Below are positions 1 to 60,302 of a stretch of 64,000 nt of DNA, piece by piece (the first letter of the stretch is position 1; each line of letters begins with the position of its first letter). The stretch comes from Actinomycetes bacterium (GTDB lineage Bacteria > Bacillota > Sulfobacillia > Sulfobacillales > JAIMBI01). The stretch spans positions 6,547-70,546 of the forward strand of contig JAIMBI010000009.1 in NCBI GenBank assembly GCA_023565505.1, written 5' to 3'. Under the pieces are notes generated by a model. The model was given only the letters and a program-made list of their open reading frames with translations. It made no database searches and was not told where the DNA came from. The translations under genes were made by a program, and so were the position numbers.

Positions 1-666
1 GCGGTACTGTGGACGGAGGCGCAGGAGGGCTGGCGGTCGAAGCACGTCCACCCGTCCAATCTCTGGCGTGGGGTGCGTTGGTGGTACTTATATCTCACCG
101 ACACGCCGCGTAGACAAGAGGACGATCCGCAGAGCCTACGGCGGATGCACAACGGGATTAAAGCCCACGAACGACTGGACGAGTACCTGGGGCGCGTTGA
201 ACGGGTAACGGATGGTCGCGTGCGCGTCGATGCCATCGAGCACTATTTCAAGGTGGAGAGCCTCAACTTCAGTGGGCGAATTGACGCCATTATCACTGTC
301 ATGAACCAGCAGTACGCGCTGGAGTTCAAGACCGCTGCGGCCAACGCCTTCCGAGCCGCGCAGAAGAACGGCCCTTCGTCGGATTACTTGTGGCAGGCTG
401 GGGGCTATACGTTCGCGACGGGGCTCCCCGTGCTGTTCTTGTATGAATGCAAGGACAACCAGGAGTGGTTTGGCTGCTTTCCTAAGGCGGAAGCTTACGC
501 GCTCCAGGTCGGGCCGAAGCTGCGGGCGATTCAGGAGGCCGTCACAAGCCGTACCGTCCCGCCCCTTTGTGATGTGGGCTGTAATACCTGTGTGTTTCAG
601 GCGACCTGTGCGGCGCTGCCGGTACAGGGCGGTGCCGACCCGCGCAAGACAGCGGAGACCGGCTAG
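1..666 (+). CDS. PD-(D/E)XK nuclease of the RecB/Cas4 family (5' end outside the window)
   Basis: The frame is open from nt 1. Motifs seen: GRIDAI...ALEFKT (D...ExK), QAGGY (QxxxY), and a C-terminal Cys cluster CDVGCNTCVFQATC as in Cas4/AddB-type Fe-S nucleases. Confidence 0.7.
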   Translation, partial: AVLWTEAQEGWRSKHVHPSNLWRGVRWWYLYLTDTPRRQEDDPQSLRRMHNGIKAHERLDEYLGRVERVTDGRVRVDAIEHYFKVESLNFSGRIDAIITVMNQQYALEFKTAAANAFRAAQKNGPSSDYLWQAGGYTFATGLPVLFLYECKDNQEWFGCFPKAEAYALQVGPKLRAIQEAVTSRTVPPLCDVGCNTCVFQATCAALPVQGGADPRKTAETG

Positions 667-678
667 AGGAGGGTGACG

Positions 679-1077
679 ATGTTTAGGTGGGAAAACGCCG
701 TCCTGCGTGAGCTTCGCAATGCTCATCAAGAGGCCGCCGAGCAGCGCCGACGGGCCGCCGATGCTGAAGCGGAGCTTTCTCGTCTGAAGCGCGACTGGTC
801 GAAAGCACGGAGTCTGTATGGGAGCCTGGAGCGCCTATTACAGTGGTACTGGGACGTGTATCATCAAGATCCCGTCCGGGTGGAGGTCCCTGAGGCGCTG
901 TACCCCTTGCTTTTGATTGATGTACAGAGGGAATGGCTCAAGTGCGCGCCTCTGGAGATTCACCATCACTGGACTTCCGTAGGATATACGTCCCCCTTGA
1001 CCGGCAAGGTCATCCCTTTTGTTGCCGGACACGAGTTCCGTATTTGGACACAAGAAACCGCCTCGGAGACGCCTTAA
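679..1077 (+). CDS. Hypothetical phage protein with a coiled-coil-like N-terminus
   Basis: ORF 673..1077. The ATG at 679 follows the RBS GAGGAGGG. No recognisable domain. Confidence 0.4.
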   Translation: MFRWENAVLRELRNAHQEAAEQRRRAADAEAELSRLKRDWSKARSLYGSLERLLQWYWDVYHQDPVRVEVPEALYPLLLIDVQREWLKCAPLEIHHHWTSVGYTSPLTGKVIPFVAGHEFRIWTQETASETP

Positions 1078-1102
1078 AGAACCCGGCAAGGACTGAACAG
1101 AT

Positions 1103-1729
1103 GTGCGTTGTCTGGCCGTAGATCCCGGCTCACGGGCCTGGGGCTGGGCGGTTTATGATACCGTCGCGCAGACCATAGATTACGCCCGCGAGACCTTCCC
1201 GGTGCATTGGTCGTTCCCGCTCCGCCTTCGGCATCTCGCAGATCGCGTAGCGACTCTCATTGACCAATATAAGCCGGACCTCTTGGTCACGGAAATGCAA
1301 AACCACATGCGGAACATGACGACGTTACGACGGCTCAACGCCGTCGTGGGTGTGGTGCTGTTGACCGCAGAAGAGTACGGGATTCCGGTCGATGAGCTAC
1401 GAATCGTGGAAGTACGCCGTCTCCTGATTCCCAAGTCCCTGAAGCGGAGTAAGGAGACCATGTGCCAGTGTCTCCAAGAGTGCTGTAACGGCGACGTGCA
1501 ATTCCTTCGGCAAGGTACGGCCAAGGCCCCGGCCTTTGACGCCTCAGACGCCGTGGGCTTAGCCATTTTTGGTGCGTCGGTCAAGTCAGTGAACGCGGCG
1601 GAAGGAGCCTTGTATGGACGGCTACCAGACATTACGCTCCGACATCAAGCGCCTTCAGGCAACCAGCGAGGCCGCCGAAAGCGCGGTGCTGAAGGCGCGG
1701 CTCAGCATTCCCGAAAAGCCGCCCGATGA
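1103..1729 (+). CDS. RuvC-like Holliday junction resolvase
   Basis: N-terminal LAVDPGSRAWGWAV (RuvC motif GxDPGxxxxG), LLVTEMQ (Glu), and ASDAVGLAIFG (C-terminal Asp). The 3' tail overlaps the next ORF by about 115 nt. Confidence 0.7.
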   Translation: MRCLAVDPGSRAWGWAVYDTVAQTIDYARETFPVHWSFPLRLRHLADRVATLIDQYKPDLLVTEMQNHMRNMTTLRRLNAVVGVVLLTAEEYGIPVDELRIVEVRRLLIPKSLKRSKETMCQCLQECCNGDVQFLRQGTAKAPAFDASDAVGLAIFGASVKSVNAAEGALYGRLPDITLRHQAPSGNQRGRRKRGAEGAAQHSRKAAR

Positions 1730-2120
1730 CGTGCTGGCATCATGGCGGGATATCGTACAGGCCAAGAATCTGTCTGAACTCCCGGCCCACGTCCTGGGGG
1801 ATTACCTGCAACACTTCCAGGCTGCCGTTGCGTATGCGCTGTGGGCCGAGTCCGTCGCGGATGTCCAATTCCAAACGGCACGCGCCGTCCGGGAACACAT
1901 CGAATCGCGGTTGTTGCTGCTTCAGGAGTCGAATCGGAAGGACCTCCAGCTTGCCGCTGTTCAGTCGGAGCCGGAGTATGTGACGGCTCTGGAAGCCGAA
2001 CTCCGCGCCCAGCACATCGTCAAGCTCACGCGGGCGGTGCGGCAGAGCTATGAAGGATTCCGTGATGTGATCAGTCGTGAAATCACCCGGCGTGATTCTG
2101 AACACCGGAGGCTGTTGTAA
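1614..2120 (+). CDS. Hypothetical phage protein
   Basis: ATG preceded by GGAAGGAG. Amino-acid composition is ordinary. No domain recognised. Confidence 0.45.
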   Translation: MDGYQTLRSDIKRLQATSEAAESAVLKARLSIPEKPPDDVLASWRDIVQAKNLSELPAHVLGDYLQHFQAAVAYALWAESVADVQFQTARAVREHIESRLLLLQESNRKDLQLAAVQSEPEYVTALEAELRAQHIVKLTRAVRQSYEGFRDVISREITRRDSEHRRLL

Positions 2121-3136
2121 TGGACTTGAACGACCTGCGGAAGAGCCTCGCCAAGCAGTTCGGTGACGGAGCCATCCGGCCTTTGGGCGAGATCGCAGCC
2201 CGTGTCCCCACGCTTTCTACCGGCCTGATGTCGTTAGACCTCGCCTTGAACGGCGGCTTGCCGCAGGGTCGGGTGGTCGAAATGTGGGGGAACAAGAGCG
2301 TCGGGAAGTCTACCCTGGCGCAACAGGCCATCGGCCAGTATCTCCGAGACCATCAGGAGGGATGGGCGCTCCTGATCGATGCGGAAGGTACCTATTTGCC
2401 CTCCTGGGGCGCGTTGTTTGGAGTAGACCCCGAGCGCACATTCGTTGCTCGGGGCGGCATGATGGAACAGGAGATGTACGCCGAGAAGCAGCTAGGCATT
2501 GTAGAAAAGGTGCTGCTGGCCGACCATCCTCCTGGGATCATCGTTGTGGACTCCATCCCCGCCCTCGTACCGAAGGCCGAATGGGAAGATGACCTCGAAG
2601 ACCGGACGATGGGCCTCTTGGCCGAATTGCTCGGGCGCTTTTTACGTCGGATCGTGGGCAGCGGGCGGCTTGAAAAAGCCGGGACCACGCTCATCCTCGT
2701 GAACCAAGTGCGGGAGAAAACCGGGGCACGCAGCCCCATTCCCGGTTATACCCCGGAGACCCGACCAGGGGGCCGTGCCATCGGCTTCTACGCTAGCTTG
2801 CAGATCGAAGTCAAGCGGGGCGAGAAGGTCATGGGGGAGGACCCGGTTGAGGGTAAGGTTCAGGTAGGACATGAGGTCTTCGTCCGCGTGGAGAAGTGCA
2901 AGTACAACGGGCCGCCCTTCAAGACCGCGACGTTGATGCTGAACTACCACACCGGCTTTGATGCGATAGATGACCTCGTTAGCACCGCCCTGAAACTCCG
3001 CGTCATCGAACGGCGCGGGCCTTTTTATGCCTACGGCGACTTGCGATGGCAGGGACGCGAAGCCCTGGTGCTGGCTGTCCGCGAGTCACCCGAACTGGCT
3101 CAGGCCATACGGGAGACCCTCCGGGCTGCGCTCTAA
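2120..3136 (+). CDS. RecA-family recombinase (phage RecA-like ATPase)
   Basis: STGLMSLDLALNGGLPQGRVVEMWGNKSVGKSTLA shows the RecA N-terminal core and Walker A. IIVVDSIPALVP shows Walker B. The start overlaps the stop of the preceding ORF (TAATG). Confidence 0.8.
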   Translation: MDLNDLRKSLAKQFGDGAIRPLGEIAARVPTLSTGLMSLDLALNGGLPQGRVVEMWGNKSVGKSTLAQQAIGQYLRDHQEGWALLIDAEGTYLPSWGALFGVDPERTFVARGGMMEQEMYAEKQLGIVEKVLLADHPPGIIVVDSIPALVPKAEWEDDLEDRTMGLLAELLGRFLRRIVGSGRLEKAGTTLILVNQVREKTGARSPIPGYTPETRPGGRAIGFYASLQIEVKRGEKVMGEDPVEGKVQVGHEVFVRVEKCKYNGPPFKTATLMLNYHTGFDAIDDLVSTALKLRVIERRGPFYAYGDLRWQGREALVLAVRESPELAQAIRETLRAAL

Positions 3137-3185
3137 AACTCCTCATGTCATCGACTCAAAGCCTTGTGCATCTCGGTTCTTCTTT

Positions 3186-3551
3186 ATGGAGGCGAAGAAC
3201 ACGACCCCACGAGAGGCGTCCGAGAAACAGGAATCCCGCGTCACAGCGTTCTTTCAGGCATGGCTGTCAAGCCGAACCCGTCGGCAGCCCGGATCAGGAG
3301 CGCCTGTGGCCTACAAGGGAGATGTGAGGATACCGGGATTGGCCCGGATTGAGTGCAAAACGGTCCTCACACCCCACAAGACGTTCCGCGTTCAGCGTCA
3401 GTGGTTTGAGAAGGTGGCCGATGAGTGCGTCGGCGGCGAGGTCCCGCTCCTGGTCTTTAGCTTCGATAACCAGACCGACTTTGTAGCCTGCGCGTTGGAA
3501 GACCTTCCGGCGATAGTACATCAGTTCCACCGAGAGGAGAGCGCGTCATGA
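3186..3551 (+). CDS. Small PD-(D/E)XK-like nuclease, possibly a resolvase-type endonuclease
   Basis: MEAKNTT... with an E(16)...GDVRI...IECK pattern (E/D...ExK). The size and its position after recA fit a structure-specific nuclease. The assignment is tentative. Confidence 0.4.
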   Translation: MEAKNTTPREASEKQESRVTAFFQAWLSSRTRRQPGSGAPVAYKGDVRIPGLARIECKTVLTPHKTFRVQRQWFEKVADECVGGEVPLLVFSFDNQTDFVACALEDLPAIVHQFHREESAS

Positions 3552-3730
3552 GCGACCTCTGCTATCTCTGCGATGGCGATGGCCTCCTGCCCTGCGCGAA
3601 TTGTGGGGGCGAAGGATTGCTAGATGGCGAAGAATGTGATGTCTGCTGGGGTGATGGGTTTGTAGACTGCCTGGATTGCGGCGGGACCGGCATCAGTGAC
3701 GAGGGTGTTGATGAGTCTGGCGATGAGTAA
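3548..3730 (+). CDS. Mini-protein made of four DnaJ-type CXXCXGXG zinc-finger repeats with an acidic tail
   Basis: CYLCDGDG, CANCGGEG, CDVCWGDG, CLDCGGTG. The start overlaps the upstream stop (ATGA). Confidence 0.6.
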   Translation: MSDLCYLCDGDGLLPCANCGGEGLLDGEECDVCWGDGFVDCLDCGGTGISDEGVDESGDE

Positions 3731-3914
3731 TGAGGAGGCGTTCATGCCGTGCCCGAAATGCTCGGGTTTGCCAGTGGACTGCGACCGCTGCACGCGATAT
3801 TTTCCCTTCGAGGTCATCAATCCGCACTGTCCAAAGTGCCACGGGACACGCAAGATGCTCTGCCCAGCCTGTGAAGGTCGAGGGTATGTGCCGCTCACAG
3901 ACTCTCAGCGATAA
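3723..3914 (+). CDS. Second Cys-rich zinc-finger mini-protein (4x CXXC)
   Basis: CPKCSG, CDRC, CPKCHGTR, CPACEGRG. The ATG at 3723 is inside ORF 3696..3914. Confidence 0.5.
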   Translation: MSNEEAFMPCPKCSGLPVDCDRCTRYFPFEVINPHCPKCHGTRKMLCPACEGRGYVPLTDSQR

Positions 3915-3936
3915 CCGCGCTAAGGAGCGTCCCCCC

Positions 3937-4770
3937 ATGCTCAACAGGAAGGTATCCGTCTTAGACAAAGGGTACGTGCGGCTCATCGACGTGATGGGGT
4001 CCGATCTGACCGCCGTGAATGCCGCCCGTGCTTCGTACATGAAAGAAAGCGAGACGCTCCAAGGACGCGATGTGCGGCTACTGGAATACCTAATTCGGGA
4101 AGGCCATACCTCACCGTTTCGACATGCCGTGGTCTCGTTCGAGATTAAGGCCCCCTTAATGGTCGCCCGCCAGTTGTTCAAATACCGGGTGGGGCACAAG
4201 CACGGGCCGGATTCCGCCGAGCTCCTGGGGACGGCCATCCCGGCTGATCTGAAAGACTTCGTGCGGACTTACTTGGAAGAGGTCTTGGGGTTTGTGGGTT
4301 TGGGTGATGACTACGGCGGCGAAGATAGTCTCTACGCTCGGAATGAGGCCAGTCGTCGCTACGTGACGCTGGAGCCCGAGTTCTATATCCCCGCCATCGA
4401 TCAGTGGCGGGGAGCACCCGGACCCGGACAGAGCAAGCAAGGGAGTAACGGCGCTATCCCTGCCTACCAGGGTGGGTGGTTGACCGCACGTCTCGCCGCT
4501 CGGGTAGAAGAAGCCCTTGAAGACTATCACGAAGCTCTCAAGCTGGGCGTTGCCCCGGAACAAGCGCGGCTGTTTCTCCCGATGTACGCGCTCTACACGA
4601 CATGGCGTTGGACGGCGAGTCTCCAAGGCGTCTTGTGGCTTCTGGAACAGCGGCTCGGCCAGGATGCTCAGTCCGAGACCCGTCAGTACGCACAGGCCAT
4701 TCGAGATCTTGTGACCCCATATTTCCCGCACACCTTCACCCTTTGGTCGGGAGGCCGTCTGAATGAGTGA
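3937..4770 (+). CDS. thyX: ThyX-family (flavin-dependent thymidylate synthase-like) protein, divergent
   Basis: The ATG at 3937 follows the RBS AAGGAG. VLDKGYVRLIDVMG, GHTSPFRHAVVSFEIKAPLMVARQL, EASRRY, and the C-terminal PEQARLFLP...LLEQRLGQDAQSETRQYA match the ThyX fold. The canonical RHR is replaced by KYRVG, and there is a long insert before SRRY. Confidence 0.8.
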   Translation: MLNRKVSVLDKGYVRLIDVMGSDLTAVNAARASYMKESETLQGRDVRLLEYLIREGHTSPFRHAVVSFEIKAPLMVARQLFKYRVGHKHGPDSAELLGTAIPADLKDFVRTYLEEVLGFVGLGDDYGGEDSLYARNEASRRYVTLEPEFYIPAIDQWRGAPGPGQSKQGSNGAIPAYQGGWLTARLAARVEEALEDYHEALKLGVAPEQARLFLPMYALYTTWRWTASLQGVLWLLEQRLGQDAQSETRQYAQAIRDLVTPYFPHTFTLWSGGRLNE

Positions 4771-5200
4771 CCACACCGTCTCCGCCCTGTATGCGGAATC
4801 CTCGTCCGAAGACGCTTCGTCCTACCCCGTCACCTCTTGGAACGATGCCGTGCGCGTCATCCTGGAGGAGCAGTACGCCTTGATGGTCAGGAAGCAGACC
4901 GACTACGGGTCGGGAAACATCGCCGCCTTTGGCGAAATGGGCGTCCTCGTGCGCCTGTCTGATAAGCTGGAGCGCCTGAAGCATCTCTTGTTCCATAGGG
5001 ATGCCGTCACCGGCGAGGTAACGTGGCGCGGCACGAATCCCCAAAACGAGACTGTAGATGACACCTATCGTGACATCTTGAACTACGCCCTCATCGCCTT
5101 GATGCTGCGGCGCGGGTATTGGACCAAGGGCTTCATGCCGGAGGATCGCTTCCTGTTCGGCGACGACATCTACGAGGAGTCAGGCGATGCGGACGAGTGA
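4763..5200 (+). CDS. DUF1599-like all-helical protein (a nucleotide-metabolism-associated domain)
   Basis: KQTDYGSGNI...RLSDKLERLKHL...ETVDDTYRDILNYALIALML matches, from my memory, the DUF1599 pattern K..DYG...R..DK..R....E..D...D..NYA. Confidence 0.55.
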   Translation: MSDHTVSALYAESSSEDASSYPVTSWNDAVRVILEEQYALMVRKQTDYGSGNIAAFGEMGVLVRLSDKLERLKHLLFHRDAVTGEVTWRGTNPQNETVDDTYRDILNYALIALMLRRGYWTKGFMPEDRFLFGDDIYEESGDADE

Positions 5201-5702
5201 AGAAGCCCTGCTCAATGCGTTTCCCTACGAGAGCTTCGCGGCGGTCAAACGGGCGGTGCGGATTCTTCCCCAACTGATTTCGCGGGCGCAGGACGGCGAT
5301 CAAGCCGCGTCCGCCTTGGTCATGGATATCGAACGCGCTATGGGGATTCGGGTCGATCCGCGCACCTTCACCTATCGCGCCACGCATAACGATGTCCTAA
5401 CGGAGACCCAGCAACAGGCGGTCTGGTTGCACTTGGTCCTGGGCTACAAACTCCGTGAAGTGGCGGGCCGGACGGGGATCTCGCCGCAAGCCGTGAACCG
5501 GCGCGTCACTATCGCCATCGAGCGAATGATGAAGTTCCTGACCACCGGCCAAACGCGAGTGTGGACCCGTGCCGAGGATGACTTCCTCCGGGACTATCTT
5601 CTTGACTACGGCGCGGTATGGGTCAGCCAAGAACTCCAGGTGCCTGTCGATGAGGTTTATCGGCGGTTCCGGTATCTCCAGCGGAAAAACCGGATCGCCT
5701 GA
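5187..5702 (+). CDS. DNA-binding protein with a sigma-70 region-4/LuxR-type HTH
   Basis: LTETQQQAVWLHLVLGYKLREVAGRTGISPQAVNRRVTIAIERM. Confidence 0.5.
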   Translation: MRTSEEALLNAFPYESFAAVKRAVRILPQLISRAQDGDQAASALVMDIERAMGIRVDPRTFTYRATHNDVLTETQQQAVWLHLVLGYKLREVAGRTGISPQAVNRRVTIAIERMMKFLTTGQTRVWTRAEDDFLRDYLLDYGAVWVSQELQVPVDEVYRRFRYLQRKNRIA

Positions 5703-5732
5703 GCCGTCCCGCCATGGAAAGGAGTCGTCTGC

Positions 5733-6020
5733 ATGGGTTGTCCCGAGGTTGAACTGGAAATCACGGTTGACCGACTCCATTTGACGGATGCCATCGAGAA
5801 GTTAGTTCGCACAGGATTCCGACGCTTTACCCTGGAGCAGCAAGGTCCGTCCTCCGAAACCGACGAGGGGCCATTCGTAGTGTATGTAGAGGTCCCACCC
5901 AAGCTATATGCTGAGGCCGTCGAAATCGCCGTCAAAGGCATCCGGCTCGTCTGGTTTTCTCACAGGCGCAGGCTGCGCGTCGGGCAGACTATTTTGTACC
6001 AAGGCGAGGACCGTTTCTGA
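5733..6020 (+). CDS. Hypothetical phage protein
   Basis: ORF with ordinary composition, abutting the next ORF (TGATG). Confidence 0.35.
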   Translation: MGCPEVELEITVDRLHLTDAIEKLVRTGFRRFTLEQQGPSSETDEGPFVVYVEVPPKLYAEAVEIAVKGIRLVWFSHRRRLRVGQTILYQGEDRF

Positions 6021-6280
6021 TGCCGATCCCGGTCAAGGAACAGGAGACCATCATCACTTGGCTAGGTGAGGACCAAGAGGCCGAGGTCTTCACGATGATG
6101 CCGAGTGTCCAGCGGGCTATCCAACGGGAAGGCATCAAACCGTTTCGGGAAGAAGCCGCCGGGAAATGGTATAAAGTGCCCCTAAAGTTCTTCTGGTTGG
6201 CGGGCGGCCCGAACCCCTCCCGTCGAGGTCACGTCGCTGCCCCGCGCCGCCCAGGTCGCCGCTCAAAGGCGGGGCGGTGA
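6020..6280 (+). CDS. Hypothetical phage protein
   Basis: ORF followed by a strong terminator hairpin. Confidence 0.35.
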   Translation: MPIPVKEQETIITWLGEDQEAEVFTMMPSVQRAIQREGIKPFREEAAGKWYKVPLKFFWLAGGPNPSRRGHVAAPRRPGRRSKAGR

Positions 6281-6299
6281 ACCGAGTCGATCCCTGCAA

Positions 6300-6331
6300 C
6301 CGCCCCGCTACGAGAGCGGGGCGGTTTGCTT
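6300..6331 (+). terminator. Rho-independent terminator
   Basis: Stem CCGCCCCGCT / AGCGGGGCGG (10 bp perfect), loop ACGAG, then TTTGCTT. Confidence 0.6.
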
Positions 6332-6411
6332 GTCCGCCGTGACTGGGGCCGATAGGAGAGTGGTTGTCCCTCCCCGGTCTCGTCATAGAAGACAGCGAGG
6401 AGTGATGAGGA

Positions 6412-6636
6412 GTGGGTAGGCGGCGGCTAAAGCCCGAGGAGGTCCGTGTCGTCGTCAGGGGTTCGGGGGATGGCCGTACCAAAGAAGAGGTCCTGATGCA
6501 GATAAAGGATCTGATTCTGGAGGGAGCCCGTAAAGGGATACAAAAGTATATCGTCGATAATCCCAATGGTATACTTGACGAGGACGACCAATCTGTGTCC
6601 GAGGAGGACGGCCAGGAGTGCAAGTCATTACCGTAG
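6412..6636 (+). CDS. Small acidic hypothetical protein immediately upstream of, and overlapping, the recombinase gene
   Basis: ORF only. Its position makes it a candidate accessory or directionality factor, but there is no sequence support for that role. Confidence 0.3.
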   Translation: MGRRRLKPEEVRVVVRGSGDGRTKEEVLMQIKDLILEGARKGIQKYIVDNPNGILDEDDQSVSEEDGQECKSLP

Positions 6637-8663
6637 ACCGTGATCACCCTCAGCCGACGCGGGTCGAACTCGATGCTTGGGCTGATTCGATTCAAGGTAT
6701 TATCTATGCCCGTGTCTCGACGGCTGACCAAGCCAAGCACGGGTACTCTTTGGAATCTCAGGTCGAGCGGTGCGCTGCGTGGGCCAAGCAACAGTATCGC
6801 ATTCATGACGACGAACTGTTAGCGATTGTTGAGCGCGGGGAGATGGGGGATGACCCGAATCGCCCTGCGCTCAATTTTGCTTTGCGACTGATCGAAGAAG
6901 GCGTCGGACGGCGGTTTATCGTCTTGCATCCTGACCGTTTCTCCCGTGACCTGGGCTTACAGCTTCAGGTCGCGTCGCGCATTTTAGGGGCCGGGTGCGA
7001 GATGGGCTTTGTGGAGGTGGACTTCGACCCCACCAACCCCGAGTCCACGCTGATGTTTAACATCCAGGGAGCTATCGCCCAGTATAACAAGGCGAAAATC
7101 CTCGCGAACTCGAAGCGAGGACGACGGACTAAGGCGCGGAACGGGAAGATTCCTGGCACCCATCGCATTTACGGGTATGCCTTTGACAAGGAGCGGGACA
7201 TCCTCGTCGAAAACCCGGAAGAAAAGGCCGTCTACCTTCAGATCGTTCACTGGCTGCTGAACGGATTGGACGGGAAGCCCATGACCGCGACGGCGATTGC
7301 TCAGGAACTGTCTCGGCGCGGTATCCCTGCGCCTGAAGGACCGCGTTGGCATCAGGCCACCGTGGCGCGGATGCTCAGGAATCCCGCTTACCTGGGCACC
7401 TACTACTACGGCAAGACGGAGACGGTTCAGCGCAACGGAAAGAAACAACTTGTGAAGAAACCGCGCGAAGAATGGATTGCCATCAAGATCCCCGCCTACA
7501 TTGATGAGATCACCTTCCAGCGCATTCAGCAGCGCCTCGATGATCTCGTGACCCGGAATACGACACGAGGACGGAAGCCAAAGGGACAGTATCTCCTGCG
7601 TGGACTGGTGCGCTGTGGTCTCTGTGGAGGAGCGGCTGGGGCGGCTCCCTCTTCGCGCGACCCCAAGACGAAGCAGGTGCGGCATTACTACTATCGCTGT
7701 ATCAACGCTTCGGCCAAAAGCTACGAAGTGGGCACCGGGGAACCTACAAAAAAGTGCCGGGGCCGGTATTGGCGTACCGAAGTGGCGGACAAGCTTGTAT
7801 GGGACGAGATTAAGCGGATTGTCCTAGACCCGGACAGTGCCATTCAAAAAATCCTCGGGATGAAAATCACGGACAAGGATATGGCAGAAATGACCACAAG
7901 GGTCCATGCCATCCAGGAGAGCCTAGCAGCTAAAGAGATGGCGAAGAATCGTGTCATGGACCTGTACATCGCTGGGATGATTCCGACCAAAGAGGAACTC
8001 GCCAAGCGACTGGCTCCTATTGAGAAAGACATCGCTTACCTCCGCGAGTCGCTCACTGTTCAGGAGGGCCTAATGGCCCAAGCGGGCAACGACAATGCGC
8101 TGTGGGACAGCTTGCACCATAAGTTGATCGGCTTCCAAAAGTGGTTCGACCGGGACGTGACCTTTGCCCAAAAGGAAGAAGTGGTCCGAGCCATCGTCAA
8201 GCAGGTCCTGCTTTACCAGGACCACCTCGAAGTCATTATGGCTTGGGACGTGCCCAATCGCACCCCTCCCGACCCTGATGGCTCTACCCGAATTGAGAAC
8301 ACAAGTGAAGGCGATGGAGGACCACAAGAGCGAATTCCTCCTCATCCTGGCCGGTTACCCGCGGGAGATGGCGAGCTTCCTGGCCGCCAACCCCGGTCTC
8401 TATTCGCGCTTCCCCATTCACTTGGACTTCCCGGACTACTCGCCGCAGGAGCTCATGCTCATCACCGAACAGATGGTGCGACAACGGGAGTACCGGCTCA
8501 CCGAGGAGGCGCGCCTGGAGCTGATACGCTACTGGGAGCGCCGGCAGGCGTTCTGGCCCGAGAACGCGGGGAACGCGCGGCTGGTCCGCAACCTGGTCGA
8601 GCGGGCCGTCCGGCGGCAGGCGGTGCGGCTCTTGCATCGGGGCGGACCCATCAGCCGGGATGA
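6618..8663 (+). CDS. Large serine recombinase (phage integrase type). The ORF runs past the element boundary into host DNA.
   Basis: GIIYARVSTADQ carries the catalytic Ser motif of the resolvase domain. IVLHPDRFSRD, a recombinase domain, the zinc-ribbon Cys pairs CGLCGG...YYYRC, and a coiled-coil region are present. Recognisable sequence ends near ...LEVIMAWDVPNR (~8260). The remaining ~130 codons are low-complexity P/G/R-rich sequence read from the host spoVK region in another frame. Confidence 0.85.
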   Translation: MQVITVDRDHPQPTRVELDAWADSIQGIIYARVSTADQAKHGYSLESQVERCAAWAKQQYRIHDDELLAIVERGEMGDDPNRPALNFALRLIEEGVGRRFIVLHPDRFSRDLGLQLQVASRILGAGCEMGFVEVDFDPTNPESTLMFNIQGAIAQYNKAKILANSKRGRRTKARNGKIPGTHRIYGYAFDKERDILVENPEEKAVYLQIVHWLLNGLDGKPMTATAIAQELSRRGIPAPEGPRWHQATVARMLRNPAYLGTYYYGKTETVQRNGKKQLVKKPREEWIAIKIPAYIDEITFQRIQQRLDDLVTRNTTRGRKPKGQYLLRGLVRCGLCGGAAGAAPSSRDPKTKQVRHYYYRCINASAKSYEVGTGEPTKKCRGRYWRTEVADKLVWDEIKRIVLDPDSAIQKILGMKITDKDMAEMTTRVHAIQESLAAKEMAKNRVMDLYIAGMIPTKEELAKRLAPIEKDIAYLRESLTVQEGLMAQAGNDNALWDSLHHKLIGFQKWFDRDVTFAQKEEVVRAIVKQVLLYQDHLEVIMAWDVPNRTPPDPDGSTRIENTSEGDGGPQERIPPHPGRLPAGDGELPGRQPRSLFALPHSLGLPGLLAAGAHAHHRTDGATTGVPAHRGGAPGADTLLGAPAGVLARERGERAAGPQPGRAGRPAAGGAALASGRTHQPG

Positions 8664-8706
8664 TTTGATGACGTTGGTCTGGGGCGACTTCGAGGAGAGC
8701 CGGTGA
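8278..8706 (+). pseudogene. spoVK: 3' fragment of spoVK (sporulation AAA+ ATPase): lid and C-terminal part only, with no Walker A/B
   Basis: ...VKAMEDHKSEFLLILAGYPREMASFLAANPGLYSRFPIHLDFPDYSPQELMLITEQMV.QREYRLTEEA...GNARLVRNLVERAVRRQAVRLL matches the SpoVK/CbbX family C-terminal third. The upstream part of ORF 8164..8706 is an out-of-frame reading of the recombinase gene. Confidence 0.8.
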
Positions 8707-9296
8707 GCGCCGAAGTCCTCGTCGTGGGGCGGCCCAACGCCGGGAAGAGCCTGTTTGTCCTGAACTTCGCGGCCTTCCTGGGGCTCCGGGCCGTCCGCCT
8801 GGCGGCCTCGGCGGACCCGGGGGCGTCGGCCGCCCGGTGGGTCCCCCTCGAGCGGGCCCGCCGTGAATGGGTATCGCCTCTGCCCTACAGCACCCTCGAG
8901 CCGGTGGCGCTCCGGGTGGTGCTGGCGGTCGGCGGGCGGCTTCAGCCGGTGCAGGTGGTGGACTGCCCCGCCATCGACGACGGGAGCTCGCCCAGCGAGG
9001 CGATCCGGCGCGCCTGGGCGGTCACCCTGGAGCGCCTCCTGACGGCACGGGTGGTGTTGCACGTCCTGGACGCGGCGAATCCGCCGCGTGCCGTGGACGC
9101 CGAATTGGCGGCCTTCGTCGGGCCGCGCGCGGCCTATGCGGTGCTGGCCAACAAATGCGACTTACCCGAGGCAGCCGGGGCGGTTCGGCGGCTGCGCCGC
9201 CAGTTCGCTCCACGGCCGGTGCTGGCCGTCTCCGCGGCCACCAACCGGGGCTTCGCCGAAGTGGCCCGCTTCCTGGCGGACAACCTCCCCGGATAG
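8703..9296 (+). CDS. Small GTP-binding protein (G domain only), in the position of hflX/ynbA downstream of spoVK
   Basis: G1 GRPNAGKS, G4 NKCD, G5 SAA. The GTG start overlaps the spoVK stop (GTGA). Confidence 0.7.
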   Translation: MSAEVLVVGRPNAGKSLFVLNFAAFLGLRAVRLAASADPGASAARWVPLERARREWVSPLPYSTLEPVALRVVLAVGGRLQPVQVVDCPAIDDGSSPSEAIRRAWAVTLERLLTARVVLHVLDAANPPRAVDAELAAFVGPRAAYAVLANKCDLPEAAGAVRRLRRQFAPRPVLAVSAATNRGFAEVARFLADNLPG

Positions 9297-9545
9297 TTCG
9301 ACTCGGGCAGGTCGAGCGGGCCGGACATCCATGCCCGAGGATACCTCCGGAACGCCACGCCACCCCACAATGCTTGCAAGCCTTTCCGACCGGTATGGGG
9401 TTCATGTTCACGTTCGGGCGGGCCGAGCGGGGCTGTCGCCTCGTGCTTCCCTGCGGGCGGGGACCCGACCGAAGGGGAACGGTGGGTTCGGCGTTCGCTA
9501 AACGTTCGCTAAAATGGAAGGTATCACACGGCGGGGGGTGTCGTT

Positions 9546-10010
9546 GTGCGTGGCGATCTGACAGTTGGCGACGCGGTCCTTCAGTTGCACAAGATGGACA
9601 GGGAGACCTTTGTGAACCATGTGAAAGAGACCGTGAAAGACACCCTCATCGATGTCCTTGGAATCGAATATGTGGAATTATTCCCGGACCGAGTGGTCCT
9701 GACGATGCCGGTAGAACCTAGGACCATGCAACCTGCCCGCATTCTGCATGGGGGGGCTTCCGTCGTTTTAGCCGAAACCGCGGCTACGTTAGCCACCGCC
9801 ATCAATATCGATCCCGAGAGGTTTTATCCGGTTGGGATGGAGATTAACGCAAACCATCTTCGACGCAAAAGCGACGGTGTGGTCACGGCAACCGCCACGC
9901 CGCTGCACAAAGGTCGTACCACGATGGTCTGGGATATCAAGATCACGGACGAAGATGGGAAGCTGGTCTGTATTTCCCGATGCACGATGGCGATTCTGCC
10001 CAAGAGATGA
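9546..10010 (+). CDS. PaaI-family hotdog-fold thioesterase
   Basis: GIEYVEL...MPVEPRTMQPARILHGGASVVLAETAAT...GRTTMVWDIKITDEDGKLVCISRCT. An alternative start is the ATG at 9594. Local G+C is visibly lower than in the neighbouring genes. Confidence 0.8.
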   Translation: MRGDLTVGDAVLQLHKMDRETFVNHVKETVKDTLIDVLGIEYVELFPDRVVLTMPVEPRTMQPARILHGGASVVLAETAATLATAINIDPERFYPVGMEINANHLRRKSDGVVTATATPLHKGRTTMVWDIKITDEDGKLVCISRCTMAILPKR

Positions 10011-10309
10011 CAGGCGCCAAGCGTAGTGCGGGCGGGCAGGTCCCGTCTGCCCGGGCGTGGCCCGGGGAACCGCCAATGGCCCGATGACGGCGAGCCCGCG
10101 GGAGGAGCTCGGTACCCGGGCTTCCGCTCGCTGCCCGGCCGCCGTATGGACGGGCCCCTGACGGACCTCCCCCGGCGCGGTGGCACGGCGCCTCTTGGTC
10201 GGTGCCCCGGAGGAGGAGGGGCGAGGTCGTCGGCCGCGCCAGGCGTGGCGGGAAGGCGCGCGCAATTCGTTCGGGCCGAATGCGCGGCCTGAGCCCGGGA
10301 GTCGGCGGA

Positions 10310-54143: not shown

Positions 54144-54926
54144 CTACTGCCGGAGCTTGCGCAACTCCGGGATGAGGCGGTCGTTGAGGACCCGGATGTG
54201 CGTGCCCTTCATCCCGAGGGAGCGCGACTCGATGACCCCTGCGCTCTCGAACTTGCGGAGCGCGTTGACGATGACCGAGCGGGTAATGCCGACCCGGTCG
54301 GCGATCTTGGACGCCACCAGCAGTCCTTCCGGCCCGTCCAGCTCGTCGAAGATGTGCTGGACGGCCTCGAGCTCCGAATACGAGAGGGTCCCGATAGCCA
54401 CCTGGACGGCGGCCTTGCGCCGCGCCTCCTCCTCCATCTCCTCCGCCTTGGCGCGGAGCATCTCCATCGCCACCACGGTGGCGCCGTACTCGGCCAGCAG
54501 GAGGTCCTCCTCGCCGAACTGGCGACCAAACCGCGAGACCACGAGGGTCCCGAGGCGTTCGCCGGCTCCGTTGATGGGGATGAGCGTGGTGATCTTGTTC
54601 TCGTAGATGCACGCCCGGTCGTGGAAGAACACGCACCGGCGGGCCTCCTGGGAGATGTTGGGCGACGTCTCCTCGACCTTCAGCAGCCCGTTGTTGTAGG
54701 ACGCGGGAAACGCCTTGTGCGCCAGCACCTCCTGCAGCATGATGCTGCACTCGAACGAGTCCAGGAGCGCGTACCCGACGACCTCGCCGGTGCGGGTGAC
54801 GACGTAGATGTTGGCCTCGATGAGGTCCGACAGCATCCGCGCCATCTGCTCGAAATCCACCGACTGCCCCGCCGTCTTCTGCAGCAACCGGTTCAGGCGA
54901 CGCGTCTTCTCGAGCAGTTCCTGCAT
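54144..54926 (-). CDS. codY: GTP-sensing pleiotropic repressor CodY
   Basis: [17 protein letters not shown]..., and the C-terminal w[29 protein letters not shown]. Confidence 0.9.
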
Positions 54927-55002
54927 GCCGTTTCCCCTTCCCGTCGCTGACTGGCCCCCACGGCGGAATTATATCACAATATGCCCCGGACCTCGTAACA
55001 AT

Positions 55003-56400
55003 TCAGAGAATATATCGATTGACGTCAACCGCCTCGGCGACCGACTTCAGGCGTTCGTCGACATACCCCGCGGTGATGGTCACGGTCTGCCCCTTCAGGC
55101 TCGGCGCGTGGAAGCTCAGTTCCTCCAGCACGCGCTCGAGGATCGTGTGCAGGCGCCGTGCGCCGATGTTCTCCACCTCCTGGTTGACCCGCGCCGCGTA
55201 CTGCGCCATCCGCTCGATGGCTTCGGGGGTGAACTCCAGAGTCACGCCCTCGGTGGCCAGCAGCGCTTGGTACTGGGTGATGAGGGAATGATGGGGCTCG
55301 ACGAGGATGCGGACGAAATCGGCCTCCGTCAGGGGTTCGAGCTCCACCCGGATGGGAAACCGGCCCTGCAGCTCCGGGATGAGGTCCGATGGCTTCGAGA
55401 CGTGGAAGGCGCCGGCGGCGATGAACAGGATGTGGTCGGTGCGCACCGGGCCGTACTTGGTCATCACCGTGGACCCTTCCACGATGGGCAGGATGTCCCG
55501 CTGCACGCCCTCCCGGGACACGTCGGGTCCGATGGCGTTTCGGCTCGAGGCGATCTTGTCGAACTCGTCGATGAAGATGATGCCCTGCTGTTCGGCCCGG
55601 AAGATGGCCTCGGCCTGGGCGGCGTCGTTGTCGATGAGCTTCTGCGCCTCTTCCTGGGTCAGGACCTTGCGTGCCTCGGCGACCGTCATCCGCCGGCGCT
55701 TCGTGCGCCGCGGCAGCAGCCCCTGGAGCATCTCCCCGAGATGGCTCTGCATGTCGTCGGGCGTCCCGATGCCGACCACCGGGAGCGGCGGGGCCTGGTC
55801 CTCCACCTCCACCTCGACGATCTCGCGCTCCAGTTCGCCGCGTCTGAGCCGCTCCCGCATCGCCTGGCGGCGGGCTTCCGCCTGGGCCACGGCCTGGCGA
55901 TCGGGAGGCGGCTCCGGGGTCCGGCTGGGACCGCCGAACAACTGCTCGAACGGGTTGCGGAAGCCGGCGGCGGGCTTGGGCACGGGGGCCAGGGCGTCCA
56001 GGATCCGCTCCTCGGCCTGCCGCTCCGCCTGTTCCCGGACGTCCTGGACGCGTTCCTCCTTCACCATGCGCAGGCTGACTTCCACCAGATCCCGCACCAT
56101 GGTGTCGACGTCCCGGCCGACGTACCCGACCTCGGTGAACTTGGTCGCCTCGACCTTGACGAACGGCGCGCGCACCAGCCGGGCCAGGCGCCGCGCGATC
56201 TCCGTCTTGCCGACGCCGGTCGGCCCAATCATCAGAATGTTCTTAGGATAGACGTCCTCCTGTAGCGCCGGGTCCAGCTGGGCCCGACGCCAGCGGTGCC
56301 GGAGCGCGTTGGCCACGGCCCGCTTGGCGGCCGCCTGGCCAACGATGTAGCGGTCCAGTTCCGCGACGATCGCGGCCGGGGTGAGTTCTGCCTCGTCCAT
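55003..56400 (-). CDS. hslU: ATP-dependent protease ATPase subunit HslU
   Basis: [43 protein letters not shown], and [11 protein letters not shown]. Confidence 0.95.
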
Positions 56401-56418
56401 CGGTCTGTCCCTCCCGGG

Positions 56419-56991
56419 CTACGCCTCCAGCGTCTCGATGGTCAGATGGTGATTGGTGAACACGCAGATGTCGGCGGCGATGTCGAGCGACCGGCGCACC
56501 AGTTCCTCCGGGTCGCCGTCGGGCCAGGCCTGAGCGAAAGCCCGACACGCCGCCAGCGCGTAGGCCCCGCCCGATCCGACGGCGGCGATGCCGTCGTCCG
56601 GTTCGATGACGTCGCCGGCGCCGGACAGAACCAGGAGCGTACTGCGGTCGGCGACCACCAGGAGCGCCTCGAGGCGGCCCAGGGTGCGGTCAGTGCGCCA
56701 GTCGCGGGAGAGCAGGACCGCGGCACGGGCGAGCTGACCCCGGGTTTCCTCGAGCTTGGCCTCGAAGCGCTCGAAGAGCGTCAGGGCGTCGGCTACCGCC
56801 CCGGCGAAGCCGGCCAGCACGGTGCCGTGGTACAGCCGCCGCACTTTACGGGCCGTGCTCTTCAGGATGGTCGCCTGGCTCAGGGTGACTTGTCCGTCGC
56901 CGCCGATGACCGCCTTGCCGCGCCGGATCATCCCCAGAATGGTCGTCCCGTGGATGCGGGTCGGCGACGGCGCGGGGGTGTGCATGGGCAT
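56419..56991 (-). CDS. hslV: ATP-dependent protease subunit HslV, with an N-terminal extension before the Thr-Thr active-site end
   Basis: ...[25 protein letters not shown]..., and [10 protein letters not shown]. The start is uncertain (57012, 56991 or 56985). Confidence 0.9.
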
Positions 56992-57838
56992 AGATGGCCT
57001 CCAATCGTTCACGGGACACGTGGGTGTATACCTGGGTGGTGGCCAGGCGCCGGTGCCCCAGGAGCTCCTGGACGACGCGCAGATCCGCGCCGCCGTCGAG
57101 CAGGTCGGTGGCGAAGGCGTGCCGGAGCTTGTGGGGGCTGAAGGCCGGCGTGATGCCGGTCCGGCGCTCGGCCGCGGCGAGGATACGCCCCACGGCGCGG
57201 ACCGACAGGCGGGTGCCGCGCCGGTTGACGAACAGCGCCGCGGTGTCGGACCCGGCGAGGTGCGGGCGGCCTTCGGCCAGATAGCGGGCCAGGGCCGCCC
57301 GGGCCTTCTGCCCGAAGGGGACCACGCGTTCGCGGCCCCCTTTGCCTCGGACGCGGACGAGGCGCGCGTCCAGGTCGAGATCCGCCACGTCGATCCCCAC
57401 CGCCTCGGCGGCCCGCAGGCCGGCCCCGTACAGCAGCTCCAAGAGCGCCTGCTCGCGGAGGCGGAGGGGATCCGCGGGAGCCGGGCCGAACAGGCGCTCC
57501 ACCGCCGCCCGGGGCGGGACCCGGGGAAGCGGCGGACGGAAACGCGGCGCGACCAGAGCCTCCGCGGGATTGTCGGCCCGGCGGCCTTCCCGCTCGAGCC
57601 ATCGGTAGAACGAGCGGACCGCGGCCAGGCTGCGGGCCGCCGACCGGCGCGAGAGGCCGCGCGCCGCCAGCCCGGCGGCCCAGCGGCGGAGATCCGCGAC
57701 CCCGGCGGCCACGGGATCGCCCACCCCGGCCACCAACGCCTCCAGGTCGTGCCGATAGGCGCGGAGGGTGTGCGGCGAGGCGCCGCGCCCCACCCGCAGG
57801 TATTCCAGGAAGGCCTCCACCGGATCCGCTTCAGCCAT
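56846..57838 (-). CDS. xerC: Tyrosine recombinase XerC/CodV. The ORF extends ~45 codons past the usual C-terminus into hslV.
   Basis: The N-terminal SAM-like domain ([23 protein letters not shown]) is present, along with the catalytic residues R...HKLRHAFAT...[16 protein letters not shown]. Confidence 0.85.
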
Positions 57839-57862
57839 GTCGTCGCGACCTTCCCGTCGGGT

Positions 57863-59926
57863 CTACTGGGCCCGTTGCTCCTCGTAGCCGCAACCCTCGC
57901 GGACGCATGTCAGCGCCTCCTGACCCCCCCGGCGGCGGACCGCCAGGAACGCCCCACAGCGGGGACAGGTCTTGTCGCTCGGCCGGTACCAGGTGACGAA
58001 GCGGCAGGCAGGATATCCGCTGCAGCCGTAGAAGATCCGGCCCTTCCGGCTCCGCCGGACAACGACCGGCTTGCCGCACACCGGGCAGGCGGCGCCCGTC
58101 TTCTCCAGATAGGGGCGGGTGTGCTGGCACTCGGGGTACCCCGAGCAGGCCAGGAACCGTCCGAACCGCCCGTGTTTGACCACCATCGGCCGGCCGCACA
58201 CCTCGCAGACCTCGTCCGTGACCTCCGTCGGCAGTTCCACCGGGCCGGCGGCGGCCTCGGCCTGGTGGAGGTCCCGCGCGAAGTCGCGGTAGAAACGGGC
58301 CAGCACCTCGCGCCAGGGCTGCTCGCCGGCCTCGATGCGGTCGAGCTGCTCCTCCATCTCCGCCGTGAACTTCACGTCCACGATATGCGGGAAGAACTCC
58401 TTCAAGAGGGCCACCACCACGTGGCCCAGCTCGGTGGGCACCAGCCGCCGCTCCTCGCGCCGCACGTAGTCGCGCGCCAACAGCGTATCGATGATGGGCG
58501 CGTACGTGCTCGGCCGCCCGATGCCCAGCTCCTCGAGCGTCTTGACCAGGGAGGCCTCGGTGTACCGCGGCGGCGGCTCGGTGAAGTGCTGCGTGGCCCG
58601 GAGATCCACCAGGGACACGGCGTCCCCGGTCGGCCAGAGCGGGAGCGGAGCCTCCGGGGCGTCGTCGTCGGTGTCGGCGTACAGCGTGGTATACCCGGGG
58701 AACTTGAGCTGCTGGCCGTGGGCCCGGAACAGGTGGGCACCGGCGTGGATCTCCACCGTCACCGTGTCATAGACTGCCGGGGCCATCAGACTCGCCACAA
58801 ACCGCTCCCAGATGAGCCGGTACAGGCGGTACTGGTCCCGGGTCAGGGCATTTTTGAGCTTGTCGGGATGGCGGGCCACGGAGGTCGGCCGGATGGCCTC
58901 GTGCGCCCCCTGGACCCCCGGCCGCTCCTTGACCCGCCGCGGCGCGCCCACATAGTCCGCGCCGTACACCTCGCGGATGTACCCCCGTCCTTCCTCCTCG
59001 GCCGTGGCCGCTACCCGGGCGGAGTCGGTGCGGATGTAGGTCACCAGCCCCACCGTGCCCTCCCCCGGCACTTCGAGGCCCTCGTACAGCTGCTGGGCGA
59101 TCTGCATCGTCCGCTTGACCGTGAGCCCCAAGCGGCGGGAGGCCTCCTGCTGCAGCGTGGAGGTCGTGAAGGCCGGCGGGGCGTGGCGGCGCCGCTCGCG
59201 CTGCCGCACGCTGCCCACCGTCCACGGCCCCGGGCGCACGTCCGCCTCCAGGGCTTCCCGCCGGTCGGGCGGGATGCGGCCCTTGTCGCCCCAGGGTCCG
59301 ACGTACTGCGCGACGAGCCGCTCCCCGCCGCGCTCCACCTCGGCCTCGAGCGTGTAGTACTCTTCCCGGACGAAGCGGCGGATCTCCTCTTCGCGTTCGA
59401 CCAGGAGCCGGAGCGCGGTGGACTGCACCCGGCCGGCCGACAGGCCCGGGCGCACCTTGCGCCAGAGGAGCGGGCTCAGTTGGTAGCCGACCACGCGGTC
59501 GAGGATGCGCCGCGCCTGCTGGGCGTCGATGAGGCCCTGGGCCAGCGGACGCCACTGCTTCATCGCCCGCTGGACGGCTTCCTTCGTGATCTCGTGGATC
59601 TCGACGCGCCGGACCCGGTCGCGGTCGAGGCCGAGCACTTCCGCCAGATGCCAGGAGATGGCCTCGCCTTCGCGATCGGGGTCGGTGGCCAGGTACACCT
59701 GGTCCGCCTTGCGGGCGGCGTCCCGGAGTCCCTTCACGATCTGACCCTTACCCCGGATGGTGATGTACTTGGGTTCGAAGCCGTGCTCCACGTCGACCCC
59801 GAACTGGCTCTTTGGCAGGTCCCGGACGTGGCCCATGGACGGCATCACCTGGTAGCGCTTGCCGAGAAACCGGCTGATGGTACGGGCCTTGGCAGGCGAT
59901 TCCACGATGATGAGCGGCTTCGACAA
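57863..59926 (-). CDS. topA: DNA topoisomerase I
   Basis: The Toprim motif is [10 protein letters not shown]. There is an active-site Tyr region and three C-terminal CxxC...CxxC zinc ribbons. Confidence 0.95.
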
Positions 59927-60149: not shown

Positions 60150-60285
60150 ATCCACGACGCTCGGCCGAATCGCGCCCGTCGCGTACGGGGGAGTCCAGCT
60201 CGGCTGCGGTGAATCCGGACGCTGTCCGGTAGGGCCTTATTCCTTCGCCCGAACCATCATGCTAACCCCGGAGGCCTCAGGAAGG
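60150..60285 (+). ncRNA. c-di-AMP riboswitch (ydaO/yuaA motif) in the 5' leader of the LysM/NlpC-P60 gene
   Basis: Conserved blocks appear in the expected order: CCGAAUC-hairpin-ACGGGGGAGUCCA (60164-60197), GCGGUGAAUCC (60206-60216), GGUAGGGC (60228-60235), and CCCGAACCAUCAUGCUAACCCCGGAGGC (60248-60275). It ends right at the RBS GGAAGGAAGGG. Confidence 0.7.
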
Positions 60286-60302
60286 AAGGGAACCTCTCGC
60301 GC

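Follow-up and report, generated by a model that had tools for sequence, protein, structure and literature searches.

Several prophages and prophage remnants are known to interrupt sporulation genes, and excision during sporulation has been demonstrated for SPbeta in spsM and for phi3T in kamA (PMC4191935, PMC6957869). The described system closest to the one presented here is that of Goe14 (vB_BsuS-Goe14), an SPbeta-like phage which, like the BS155 prophage, integrates into the Bacillus subtilis gene spoVK (Kohm et al., bioRxiv 10.1101/2021.11.22.469490). Its duplicated core is AAG, a Lys codon, its phage attachment site (attP) is located within the 3' portion of the integrase coding sequence, integration shortens the integrase by 131 aa, and no sprB-like recombination directionality factor (RDF) accompanies it (bioRxiv 10.1101/2021.11.22.469490). 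Here we address another phage at the same gene, found in a stretch of 64,000 nucleotides (hereafter the window; contig JAIMBI010000009.1 of assembly GCA_023565505.1, positions 6,547 to 70,546 of the forward strand). The window contains the right-hand attachment site (attR) of a temperate phage inserted in spoVK by a large serine recombinase (LSR) at a dinucleotide AA, and we hold it to be probable, with moderate confidence, that the element is excised in the mother cell.

The product of spoVK is a mother-cell AAA+ ATPase needed for assembly of the spore cortex. In B. subtilis, sigma-E and sigma-K promoters drive mother-cell transcription of the gene, whose inactivation impairs sporulation (PMC517825); the ATPase promotes the function of MurG (PMC11513918).

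In the window, spoVK is represented by its 3' part. Of the 261 profile positions of the SpoVK model TIGR02881, the plus-strand open reading frame (ORF) at 8164-8706 covers only 132-260 (E 4.5e-44), and it also contains the Pfam domain AAA_lid_6 (PF17866). A tblastn search with B. subtilis SpoVK aligned residues 180-295 only, at 8293-8637, and found no Walker A/B part of spoVK in the whole 64 kb. An earlier note on this DNA had taken the fragment for the C-terminal third of SpoVK without a Walker A/B part upstream, and had proposed a profile check. The profile match and the tblastn result agree with that assignment, except that the fragment amounts to 41% of the gene (132 of 324 codons) instead of a third. 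The TGA stop of spoVK (8704-8706) overlaps the GTG start (8703) of a small GTPase gene, which is the GTGA translational coupling that had been described, and the same GTPase gene stands 3' of spoVK in the related contigs L009, L028 and L002-L004. The G+C content is 0.54-0.63 left of about 8250 and 0.66-0.77 right of it, the phage DNA having about 59% and the host about 72%. The view that lower-GC phage DNA precedes the fragment, with a serine integrase as its last gene reading toward the junction, is supported by this composition and by the Pfam domains of the integrase. An independent Logan assembly (L001, run SRR15214119) is 100% identical to window positions 1-10150, attR included, and the junction is therefore not an artefact of a single assembly.

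The missing 5' half was sought with the N-terminal half of the SpoVK of an intact relative. This search returned several short proteins whose homology ends at ...KDFGKEAIDTLV(K); a further short SpoVK protein, P0051, is merely cut by the end of its contig. The decisive member, P0044 (243 aa; NCBI MCL8208069.1), is encoded on Logan contig L019 from the sibling run SRR15214121. It comprises spoVK codons 1-192 with Walker A and Walker B, and its homology to SpoVK stops after AIDTLV. L019 carries, in this order, mutS-mutL-miaA-sleB-like(-)-spoVK' and then a 437-bp stretch of foreign (phage) DNA. The intact locus on L009, miaA-sleB-like(-)-spoVK-GTPase-Met-gamma-lyase-like-lexA(-), equals the left flank of L019 joined to the right flank of the window. 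The same Bacillus-type neighbourhood (mutS-mutL-miaA ... spoVK-GTPase-ynbB-like) is seen in L019, L009, L022 and L028, the sleB-like neighbour scoring below its family cut-off.

Joining residues 1-192 of P0044 to window codons 193-324 yields a spoVK of exactly 972 nt, or 324 codons, without a stop or frameshift. The rejoined protein is 98% identical over the full 324 aa to the intact P0043, encoded on L022. At the nucleotide level, L022 1-2945 matches L019 up to 10578 (96.8%) and L022 2941-3437 matches window 8305-8801 (97.6%), the identity to the intact allele thus beginning at 8305. A second intact allele, P0161 on L028, is followed by the same GTPase and thioesterase genes as in the window. 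Both intact alleles come from other samples. Among the genome contigs, the best match to the C-terminal half of SpoVK was L009, at 59%. Each spoVK half has a ratio of nonsynonymous to synonymous substitution rates (dN/dS) of 0.03-0.15 against the intact alleles. On TIGR02881 the rejoined protein scores 399.8 bits and the intact P0161 401 bits, the next families being CbbX (272) and EccA (248), which makes SpoVK the best family for the rejoined protein by about 128 bits. The earlier note had likened the locus to skin and SPbeta, expecting the 5' part in the same orientation on the left flank and a single ORF upon in silico joining of the flanks. Both were found, the former at the host-phage junction of L019 within the expected synteny. 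Neither an old deletion nor an intact copy elsewhere, the alternatives set out in that note, applies here, since the 5' half exists, the rejoined gene is intact and its halves carry the low dN/dS just given.

Serine integrases use a 2-bp non-palindromic core. The left-hand attachment site (attL, on L019) reads ...CTGGTC AA CACCTATG..., the bacterial site (attB, on L022) ...CTGGTC AA GGCGATGG... and attR (the window) ...CAAGTG AA GGCGATGG..., and attP as reconstructed is ...CACAAGTG-AA-CACCTATG. The base left of AA is as in attL and the base right of it as in attR, with AA as the sole shared core, and the exchange is therefore placed within AA at 8308-8309. This is just outside the range of 8285-8305 in which the crossover had been predicted, and host sequence begins at 8308 and not at 8278-8300 as had been supposed. 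The insertion lies inside a conserved AAA+ motif, parting the Walker A/B region from the ILAGY segment and the lid domain. Inverted repeats of at least 8 bp were not found around attR. Precise excision at AA would restore a scarless 324-codon spoVK and, additionally, a 695-codon integrase. For comparison, the attachment site in the Goe14 record is annotated at nt 1742-1744, within the integrase gene, and a host-phage chimeric read in the supplement of the Goe14 paper ends with ...GCGATCGACACACTTGT, then AAG, then AACAA... (bioRxiv 10.1101/2021.11.22.469490). Because the AAG of this read is the codon after A-I-D-T-L-V, Goe14 uses the same Lys codon as the window element.

The integrase itself belongs to the Goe14 type. 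Its three domains score well above their Pfam cut-offs (PF00239, 92.6 bits against 23.3; PF07508, 72.3 against 21.1; PF13408, 41.2 against 25.3), and its catalytic serine motif IYARVSTADQ (IYARVSTxDQ) aligns with that of the Goe14 integrase. The best phage matches are Goe14 and four sibling phages, which align across 92% of its length at 39.5% identity (E 8e-105), the remaining phage integrases showing about 26% identity or lower. In the integrated state the integrase ORF has 681 aa with no stop at the junction, and its 118-codon tail is not phage-encoded; this read-through is attributed to the high GC content. When window 6618-8307 is extended through AA into the P' arm of L019, which combines two contigs, an uninterrupted ORF of 695 codons results, whose last 131 codons contain two repeats resembling a helix-turn-helix (HTH; weak HTH_38 match, E 8.6e-6). 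The 695-aa reconstruction is collinear with the 694-aa Goe14 integrase, extension included (31 of 127 residues identical; BLASTP of extension against extension, E 9e-5). The in-frame, Goe14-like extension is therefore independent evidence that the foreign DNA of L019 belongs to the same kind of element. The collinearity of the two integrases also shows that phages and hosts as different as these have the split-integrase layout in common, as a conserved feature. The reconstruction thus places attP inside the 3' part of the integrase gene, where it recombined at AA with attB in spoVK. As read from these contigs, integration cuts two genes: spoVK, with codons 1-192 at attL and 193-324 at attR, and the integrase gene, with the 563-codon core at attR and the 131-codon HTH-like domain at attL.

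The same site is occupied in other lineages. In lineage 2, whose SpoVK is about 70% identical, an integrase gene followed by spoVK codons 193-324 is found in six contigs from six samples, and one of these samples also has the corresponding N-terminal half (P0151), within mutL-miaA-sleB-like synteny. Contigs L020 and L003 join end to start by an overlap of 118 bp at 99% (two samples, one study). The merged element (L020 4466-4720 plus L003 119-2600) has 2,721 bp between GTCAAG cores and contains a reverse-strand YetF/DUF421-like gene and an intact integrase of about 563 aa. Another mini-element, of about 3.2 kb, occupies the same spoVK codon in L024 2057-3976 (JGI Ga0079046_1002543; with L025 and L033). 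Besides the N-terminal half of spoVK, L024 contains some 120 bp of the P' arm, a gene for a HicA-like toxin accompanied by a partner ORF, a 73-aa ORF and the integrase. It shares 88.8% nucleotide identity with window 6231-7081, and the integrase protein is 96% identical over its first 154 residues, whereas its host spoVK differs from that of the window lineage by a synonymous divergence (dS) of about 1. This difference suggests that the L024-type element spread horizontally and recently. L033 carries an attR matching the L024 kind, and L021 a third attL. Both mini-elements are without the C-terminal extension of the integrase. A metagenome scan with the integrase gave only two N-terminal fragments, one being the mini-element L024.

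Not every interruption of spoVK is of this kind. P0077, considered as a second LSR site in the gene, proved to be an ordinary insertion sequence (IS) with a DDE transposase. In a lineage other than that of the window, L032 3190-4685 (ENA ERZ27233557), spoVK is cut about 11 codons downstream by a DDE-transposase IS that is unrelated to the serine integrase site, and an intact allele, P0163, lies in the same 90% cluster.

The integrase is a member of a wider clade. A full HMMER scan separated 17 representatives at 386-550 bits from all others at 270 bits or less. Near residue 550, 8 of the 17 end in [KEQ]x[NDHY]G[GR], which is the +2-frame reading of AAR-xxx-ATG-GAR-GAY, that is, of K-x-M-E-D in spoVK. 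Five further relatives end in the same signature, including the more distant P0303, P0312 and P0335 (about 530 aa), and chance internal matches occurred in 3 of 133 sequences. Back-translation of longer tails recovers KAMED...LILAGY, with 17 of 17 and 20 of 20 positions matching; the tail of the window integrase, taken as control, gave 42 of 42. The integrated Goe14-type integrase P0298 ends in ...IQAYGRQTA, whose +2 frame decodes as K-H-M-E-D-K-Q, and P0287, P0294, P0296 and P0300 are clade members in the attP form with the HTH extension. P0303, P0312 and P0335, which are 33-39% identical to the window integrase, also end in the frame-shifted K-x-M-E-D. The targeting of spoVK may thus extend beyond the Goe14-type clade.

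Upstream of the integrase, an acidic ORF of 74 aa overlaps the integrase start. Its dN/dS against L024 is 0.17 in frame and 1.05 and 2.2 in the other frames, and to judge from these ratios it is a real gene. The ORF is retained beside the integrase in the approximately 3.2-kb mini-element L024, where it has 73 aa, and it is the only candidate for an RDF or a regulator. It gave no Pfam or NCBIfam match, and tblastn found no homologue in lineage 2, in the region upstream of the Goe14 integrase or in L029, a phage contig described below. The small ORF upstream of the lineage-2 integrase was considered as a counterpart and is not similar. Between the replication genes and the integrase cassette stands a GC-rich hairpin (6296-6329), which is conserved in L024; a simple terminator scan did not call it. 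A CATAGAAGA near 6390 resembles a sigma-K -10 box by eye; it has neither the final TA nor a proper -35 element, and is not claimed as a promoter.

The rest of the prophage arm carries the replication genes (Table 1) and a gene for a DUF1599 protein. L001 adds 6.5 kb of phage DNA leftward, with a class II ribonucleotide reductase (RNR), a Toprim primase, an extracytoplasmic function (ECF)-like sigma factor, PolA and HNH. The ECF-like sigma factor (L001 2709-3254) and the region-4-only protein of the window (5187-5702) do not resemble sporulation sigma factors. The module is collinear with L029 (NCBI GCA_016276955.3, JAEHJW030014632.1, 59,289 bp) in the order SNF2-DnaB-RNR-dUTPase-primase-sigma-PolA-RuvC-RecA-ThyX, and the RNR of L029 is 70% identical to that of L001. 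PolA is closest to that of Clostridium phage phiCTP1 (59 kb), at 37% identity. Since PolA is nearest to phiCTP1 and the module is collinear with the 59-kb L029, the backbone is not SPbeta-like. Apart from the integrase, none of the element genes examined matched SPbeta-like phages, the searches against the phage collection having covered the integrase and PolA only. IMG/VR scans with the same two proteins gave no close phage. The element spans 15 kb or more, and its full size, estimated from the analogous L029 and phiCTP1, is probably about 55-60 kb.

The host is a high-GC member of the Bacillota. Genes for CodY, HslU, a XerC-like protein and TopA lie in classic Bacillus order at window 54144-59926 (-), and the nearest SpoVK proteins are from Sulfobacillus, Hydrogenisulfobacillus, Thermaerobacter and unclassified Bacillota. 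On these grounds, two proteins that appear to come from this genome, P0044 and the RNR fragment P0164 (NCBI K6V97_06640), look wrongly labelled at NCBI as "Actinomycetia bacterium". Elsewhere in the host DNA, a 4HBT thioesterase gene (window 9546-10010) sits in an island, with a GC content of about 55%, that is flanked by the GTPase and Met-gamma-lyase-like genes. It is not at that position in L009 or L002/L004 and is present in the same-species intact allele L028, and the island is probably a small, older insertion. A c-di-AMP (ydaO-type) riboswitch (56 bits) was found at window 60153-60291 (+), directly followed by a gene (60303-61346) whose product combines three LysM domains with an NlpC/P60 domain.

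Table 1. Features of the prophage arm and its junction with spoVK, in window coordinates.
Feature	Coordinates	Strand	Basis or remark
Prophage right-hand arm (P arm), genes all +, GC ~59%	1..8307	+	Composition, Pfam; extends left beyond window
RuvC-like Holliday junction resolvase	1103..1729	+	PF02075, E 1.1e-9
Phage RecA-like recombinase	2120..3136	+	PF00154, E 2.4e-50
ThyX thymidylate synthase, 277 aa by gene caller (longest ORF 3730-4770)	3937..4770	+	PF02511, E 3.9e-35; L001 gene call
Sigma-70 region 4-like HTH protein	5187..5702	+	PF08281 (Sigma70_r4_2), E 6.5e-8
GC-rich terminator-like hairpin, then TTTGCTTG	6296..6329	+	Fold energy -27.7 kcal/mol, z-score -4.5
Acidic 74-aa ORF	6412..6636	+	Overlaps integrase start by 19 nt
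LSR, Goe14-type, phage-encoded core of 563 codons	6618..8307	+	Resolvase, Recombinase, Zn_ribbon_recom
Crossover dinucleotide AA, attR core	8308..8309	.	First two bases of Lys codon after AIDTLV; three-way att comparison
spoVK 3' part, codons 193-324 + stop	8308..8706	+	TIGR02881 positions 132-260, PF17866; ILAGY segment + AAA lid domain
Integrase read-through tail, 118 codons, +2 frame of spoVK	8310..8663	+	ORF list; back-translation control 42/42 positions
Small GTPase gene (host), 197 aa, MMR_HSR1	8703..9296	+	PF01926

In sum, the Goe14-type LSR recombined the attP in its own gene with the attB of spoVK, at the AA of the Lys codon in ...AIDTLV-K-AMED.... Under the reading that we favour, the element would then be excised in the terminally differentiated mother cell, so that spoVK would be rebuilt when needed, as with skin, SPbeta and phi3T, and the prophage would stay in the forespore genome. 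The same excision reaction would serve phage induction. Excision would probably be catalysed by the truncated prophage form of the integrase, perhaps helped by the product of the 74-aa ORF. The best comparative argument that excision may be developmental lies in the mini-elements, which, like skin and gin, retain an intact integrase and the spoVK halves.

Several points weigh against this reading. The excised form was not found, and the reconstructed attP, looked for as an exact sequence, had no match in the viral and metagenome collections. The family and homologue searches on the 74-aa ORF identified no RDF. No sporulation-type or sigma-70-type promoter was recognised upstream of the integrase, and a scan of 5600-9400 gave no sigma-70-like site. 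The attL and attR come from separate contigs of sibling runs, and the middle of the element was not recovered; they are paired on three grounds, namely that one and the same intact allele matches both, that the integrase frame is continuous across them and that their NCBI counterparts are labelled as the same kind of metagenome-assembled genome (MAG). The intact alleles differ from the lysogen flanks by about 3% or more and are therefore other strains, not products of excision. The full-length SpoVK proteins, at 400-401 bits, fall about 22 bits below the equivalog cut-off of TIGR02881 (422.95); though the strict cut-off is missed, best family and synteny argue that the gene is a spoVK orthologue. 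The host is uncultured, and its ability to sporulate is deduced from gene content. Even for Goe14, restoration of spoVK during sporulation is "to be investigated" (bioRxiv 10.1101/2021.11.22.469490).

One alternative is ordinary lysogeny, in which the highly conserved stretch coding for DTLVK is merely a dependable attB, excision occurs only on induction, and sporulation of the lysogen is impaired or follows induction or curing. The lack of an attP or a same-strain attB junction in the collections, of a recognisable sporulation promoter or RDF, and of a settled answer for Goe14 are all consistent with it, and the window element resembles a complete, replication-competent phage module and not a domesticated remnant. 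However, at the same codon two independent mini-elements, now devoid of the phage genes, have kept an uninterrupted integrase of about 563 aa together with intact spoVK halves; without selection on the ability to excise, this pattern would be difficult to account for. The lineage-2 arrangement moreover recurs in six samples, both spoVK halves have the low dN/dS values given above (0.03-0.15), and excision during sporulation is demonstrated for SPbeta in spsM and phi3T in kamA (PMC4191935, PMC6957869). We regard ordinary lysogeny as unlikely, though as an explanation of real weight. A dead remnant, with spoVK as a permanently inactivated pseudogene and an integrase that no longer works, would account for the 118-codon nonsense tail of the integrated integrase ORF and would fit an uncultured MAG of presumed sporulation. 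It is nevertheless highly improbable, given that the spoVK halves are intact, total exactly 972 nt, are 98% identical to intact alleles and have dN/dS of at most 0.15, that the three integrase domains and the catalytic motif are intact, and that the phage ORFs of the window show no visible disruption. That the phage-spoVK junction exists in no cell and is a chimera of assembly or binning is scarcely credible. The source is a MAG and the element extends over at least two contigs, but the Logan assembly is identical over 10,150 bp across attR, the junction is codon-precise and restores the ORF, and the same architecture with the same dinucleotide is found in at least four lineages and in the experimentally isolated Goe14.

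Returning to the favoured reading of an excisable prophage, a bolder extension may be considered, which we put forward as speculative and rather doubtful. The Goe14-type integrases would be an old clade always targeting one Lys codon of spoVK, and their detachable domain of about 131 aa would be a built-in directionality switch. The full-length protein, made only from circular phage DNA, would integrate, and for excision the truncated prophage form would need no classical RDF. The mini-elements, which have lost this domain and all phage genes and retain the 563-aa core, would then act on spoVK as developmental switches capable of excision only, in spore-formers of several classes.

The earlier note did not place spoVK among the textbook examples of such split genes. 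This agrees with the papers on skin, SPbeta, gin and yin that were examined and with a large LSR survey, in which no mention of spoVK was found, and yet the site had been published for Goe14 and BS155. The use of spoVK as an integration site of an LSR phage, at the same codon, is thus already known; the phage backbone and the distant host are new. Beyond the literature found are the deep conservation of the target codon and of the self-splitting integrase, and the mini-elements at the spoVK site. Prophage-interrupted sporulation genes, and the spoVK site in particular, are extended beyond the B. subtilis group to distant, uncultured, high-GC Bacillota. The fact that one clade has kept the target codon and the self-splitting layout across this distance argues that the split integrase is functional and not accidental. 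If it is, a serine integrase whose own C-terminus determines the direction of reaction comes within reach of testing, and such an enzyme would be useful to genome engineers. There is also a trap for annotation: the "681-aa integrase" overlapping spoVK and the "137-243-aa AAA ATPases" in such MAGs are junction artefacts.

The window element can finally be set beside the known systems. It shares with Goe14 the target gene and the Lys codon after AIDTLV, the core AA(G) and a homologous integrase (39.5%, the best match by far), as well as an attP within the 3' part of the integrase gene, so that integration detaches a C-terminal domain, about 131 aa long, that contains two HTH-like repeats; in neither is a SprB-like RDF evident. 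The two differ in that Goe14 has a Spbetavirus backbone of about 125-135 kb, whereas the window phage is unrelated, with a module collinear with a 59-kb contig. The hosts of Goe14 are of the B. subtilis group, and that of the window is a distant member of the Bacillota with about 72% GC. Additionally, the Goe14 integrase is shortened upon integration, while the integrase ORF of the window reads on for 118 codons through spoVK. As in skin (sigK; SpoIVCA), SPbeta (spsM; SprA/SprB) and phi3T (kamA), an LSR-carrying prophage or remnant interrupts a mother-cell sporulation gene, precise excision restores or would restore the ORF, and the recombinase gene lies at one end beside the att site (PMC4191935, PMC6957869). 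Those systems use other target genes and another LSR clade, their attP does not split the recombinase gene, and their developmental excision and sigma-E/sigma-K-controlled RDF are demonstrated, whereas excision of the window element is predicted. The non-prophage element gin (gerE, B. cereus ATCC 10987; PMC5595907) is matched by the 2.7-kb (L020 + L003) and approximately 3.2-kb (L024) elements, which carry essentially only a recombinase; gin differs in its target gene and recombinase clade, and the window itself, unlike gin, holds a full phage arm.

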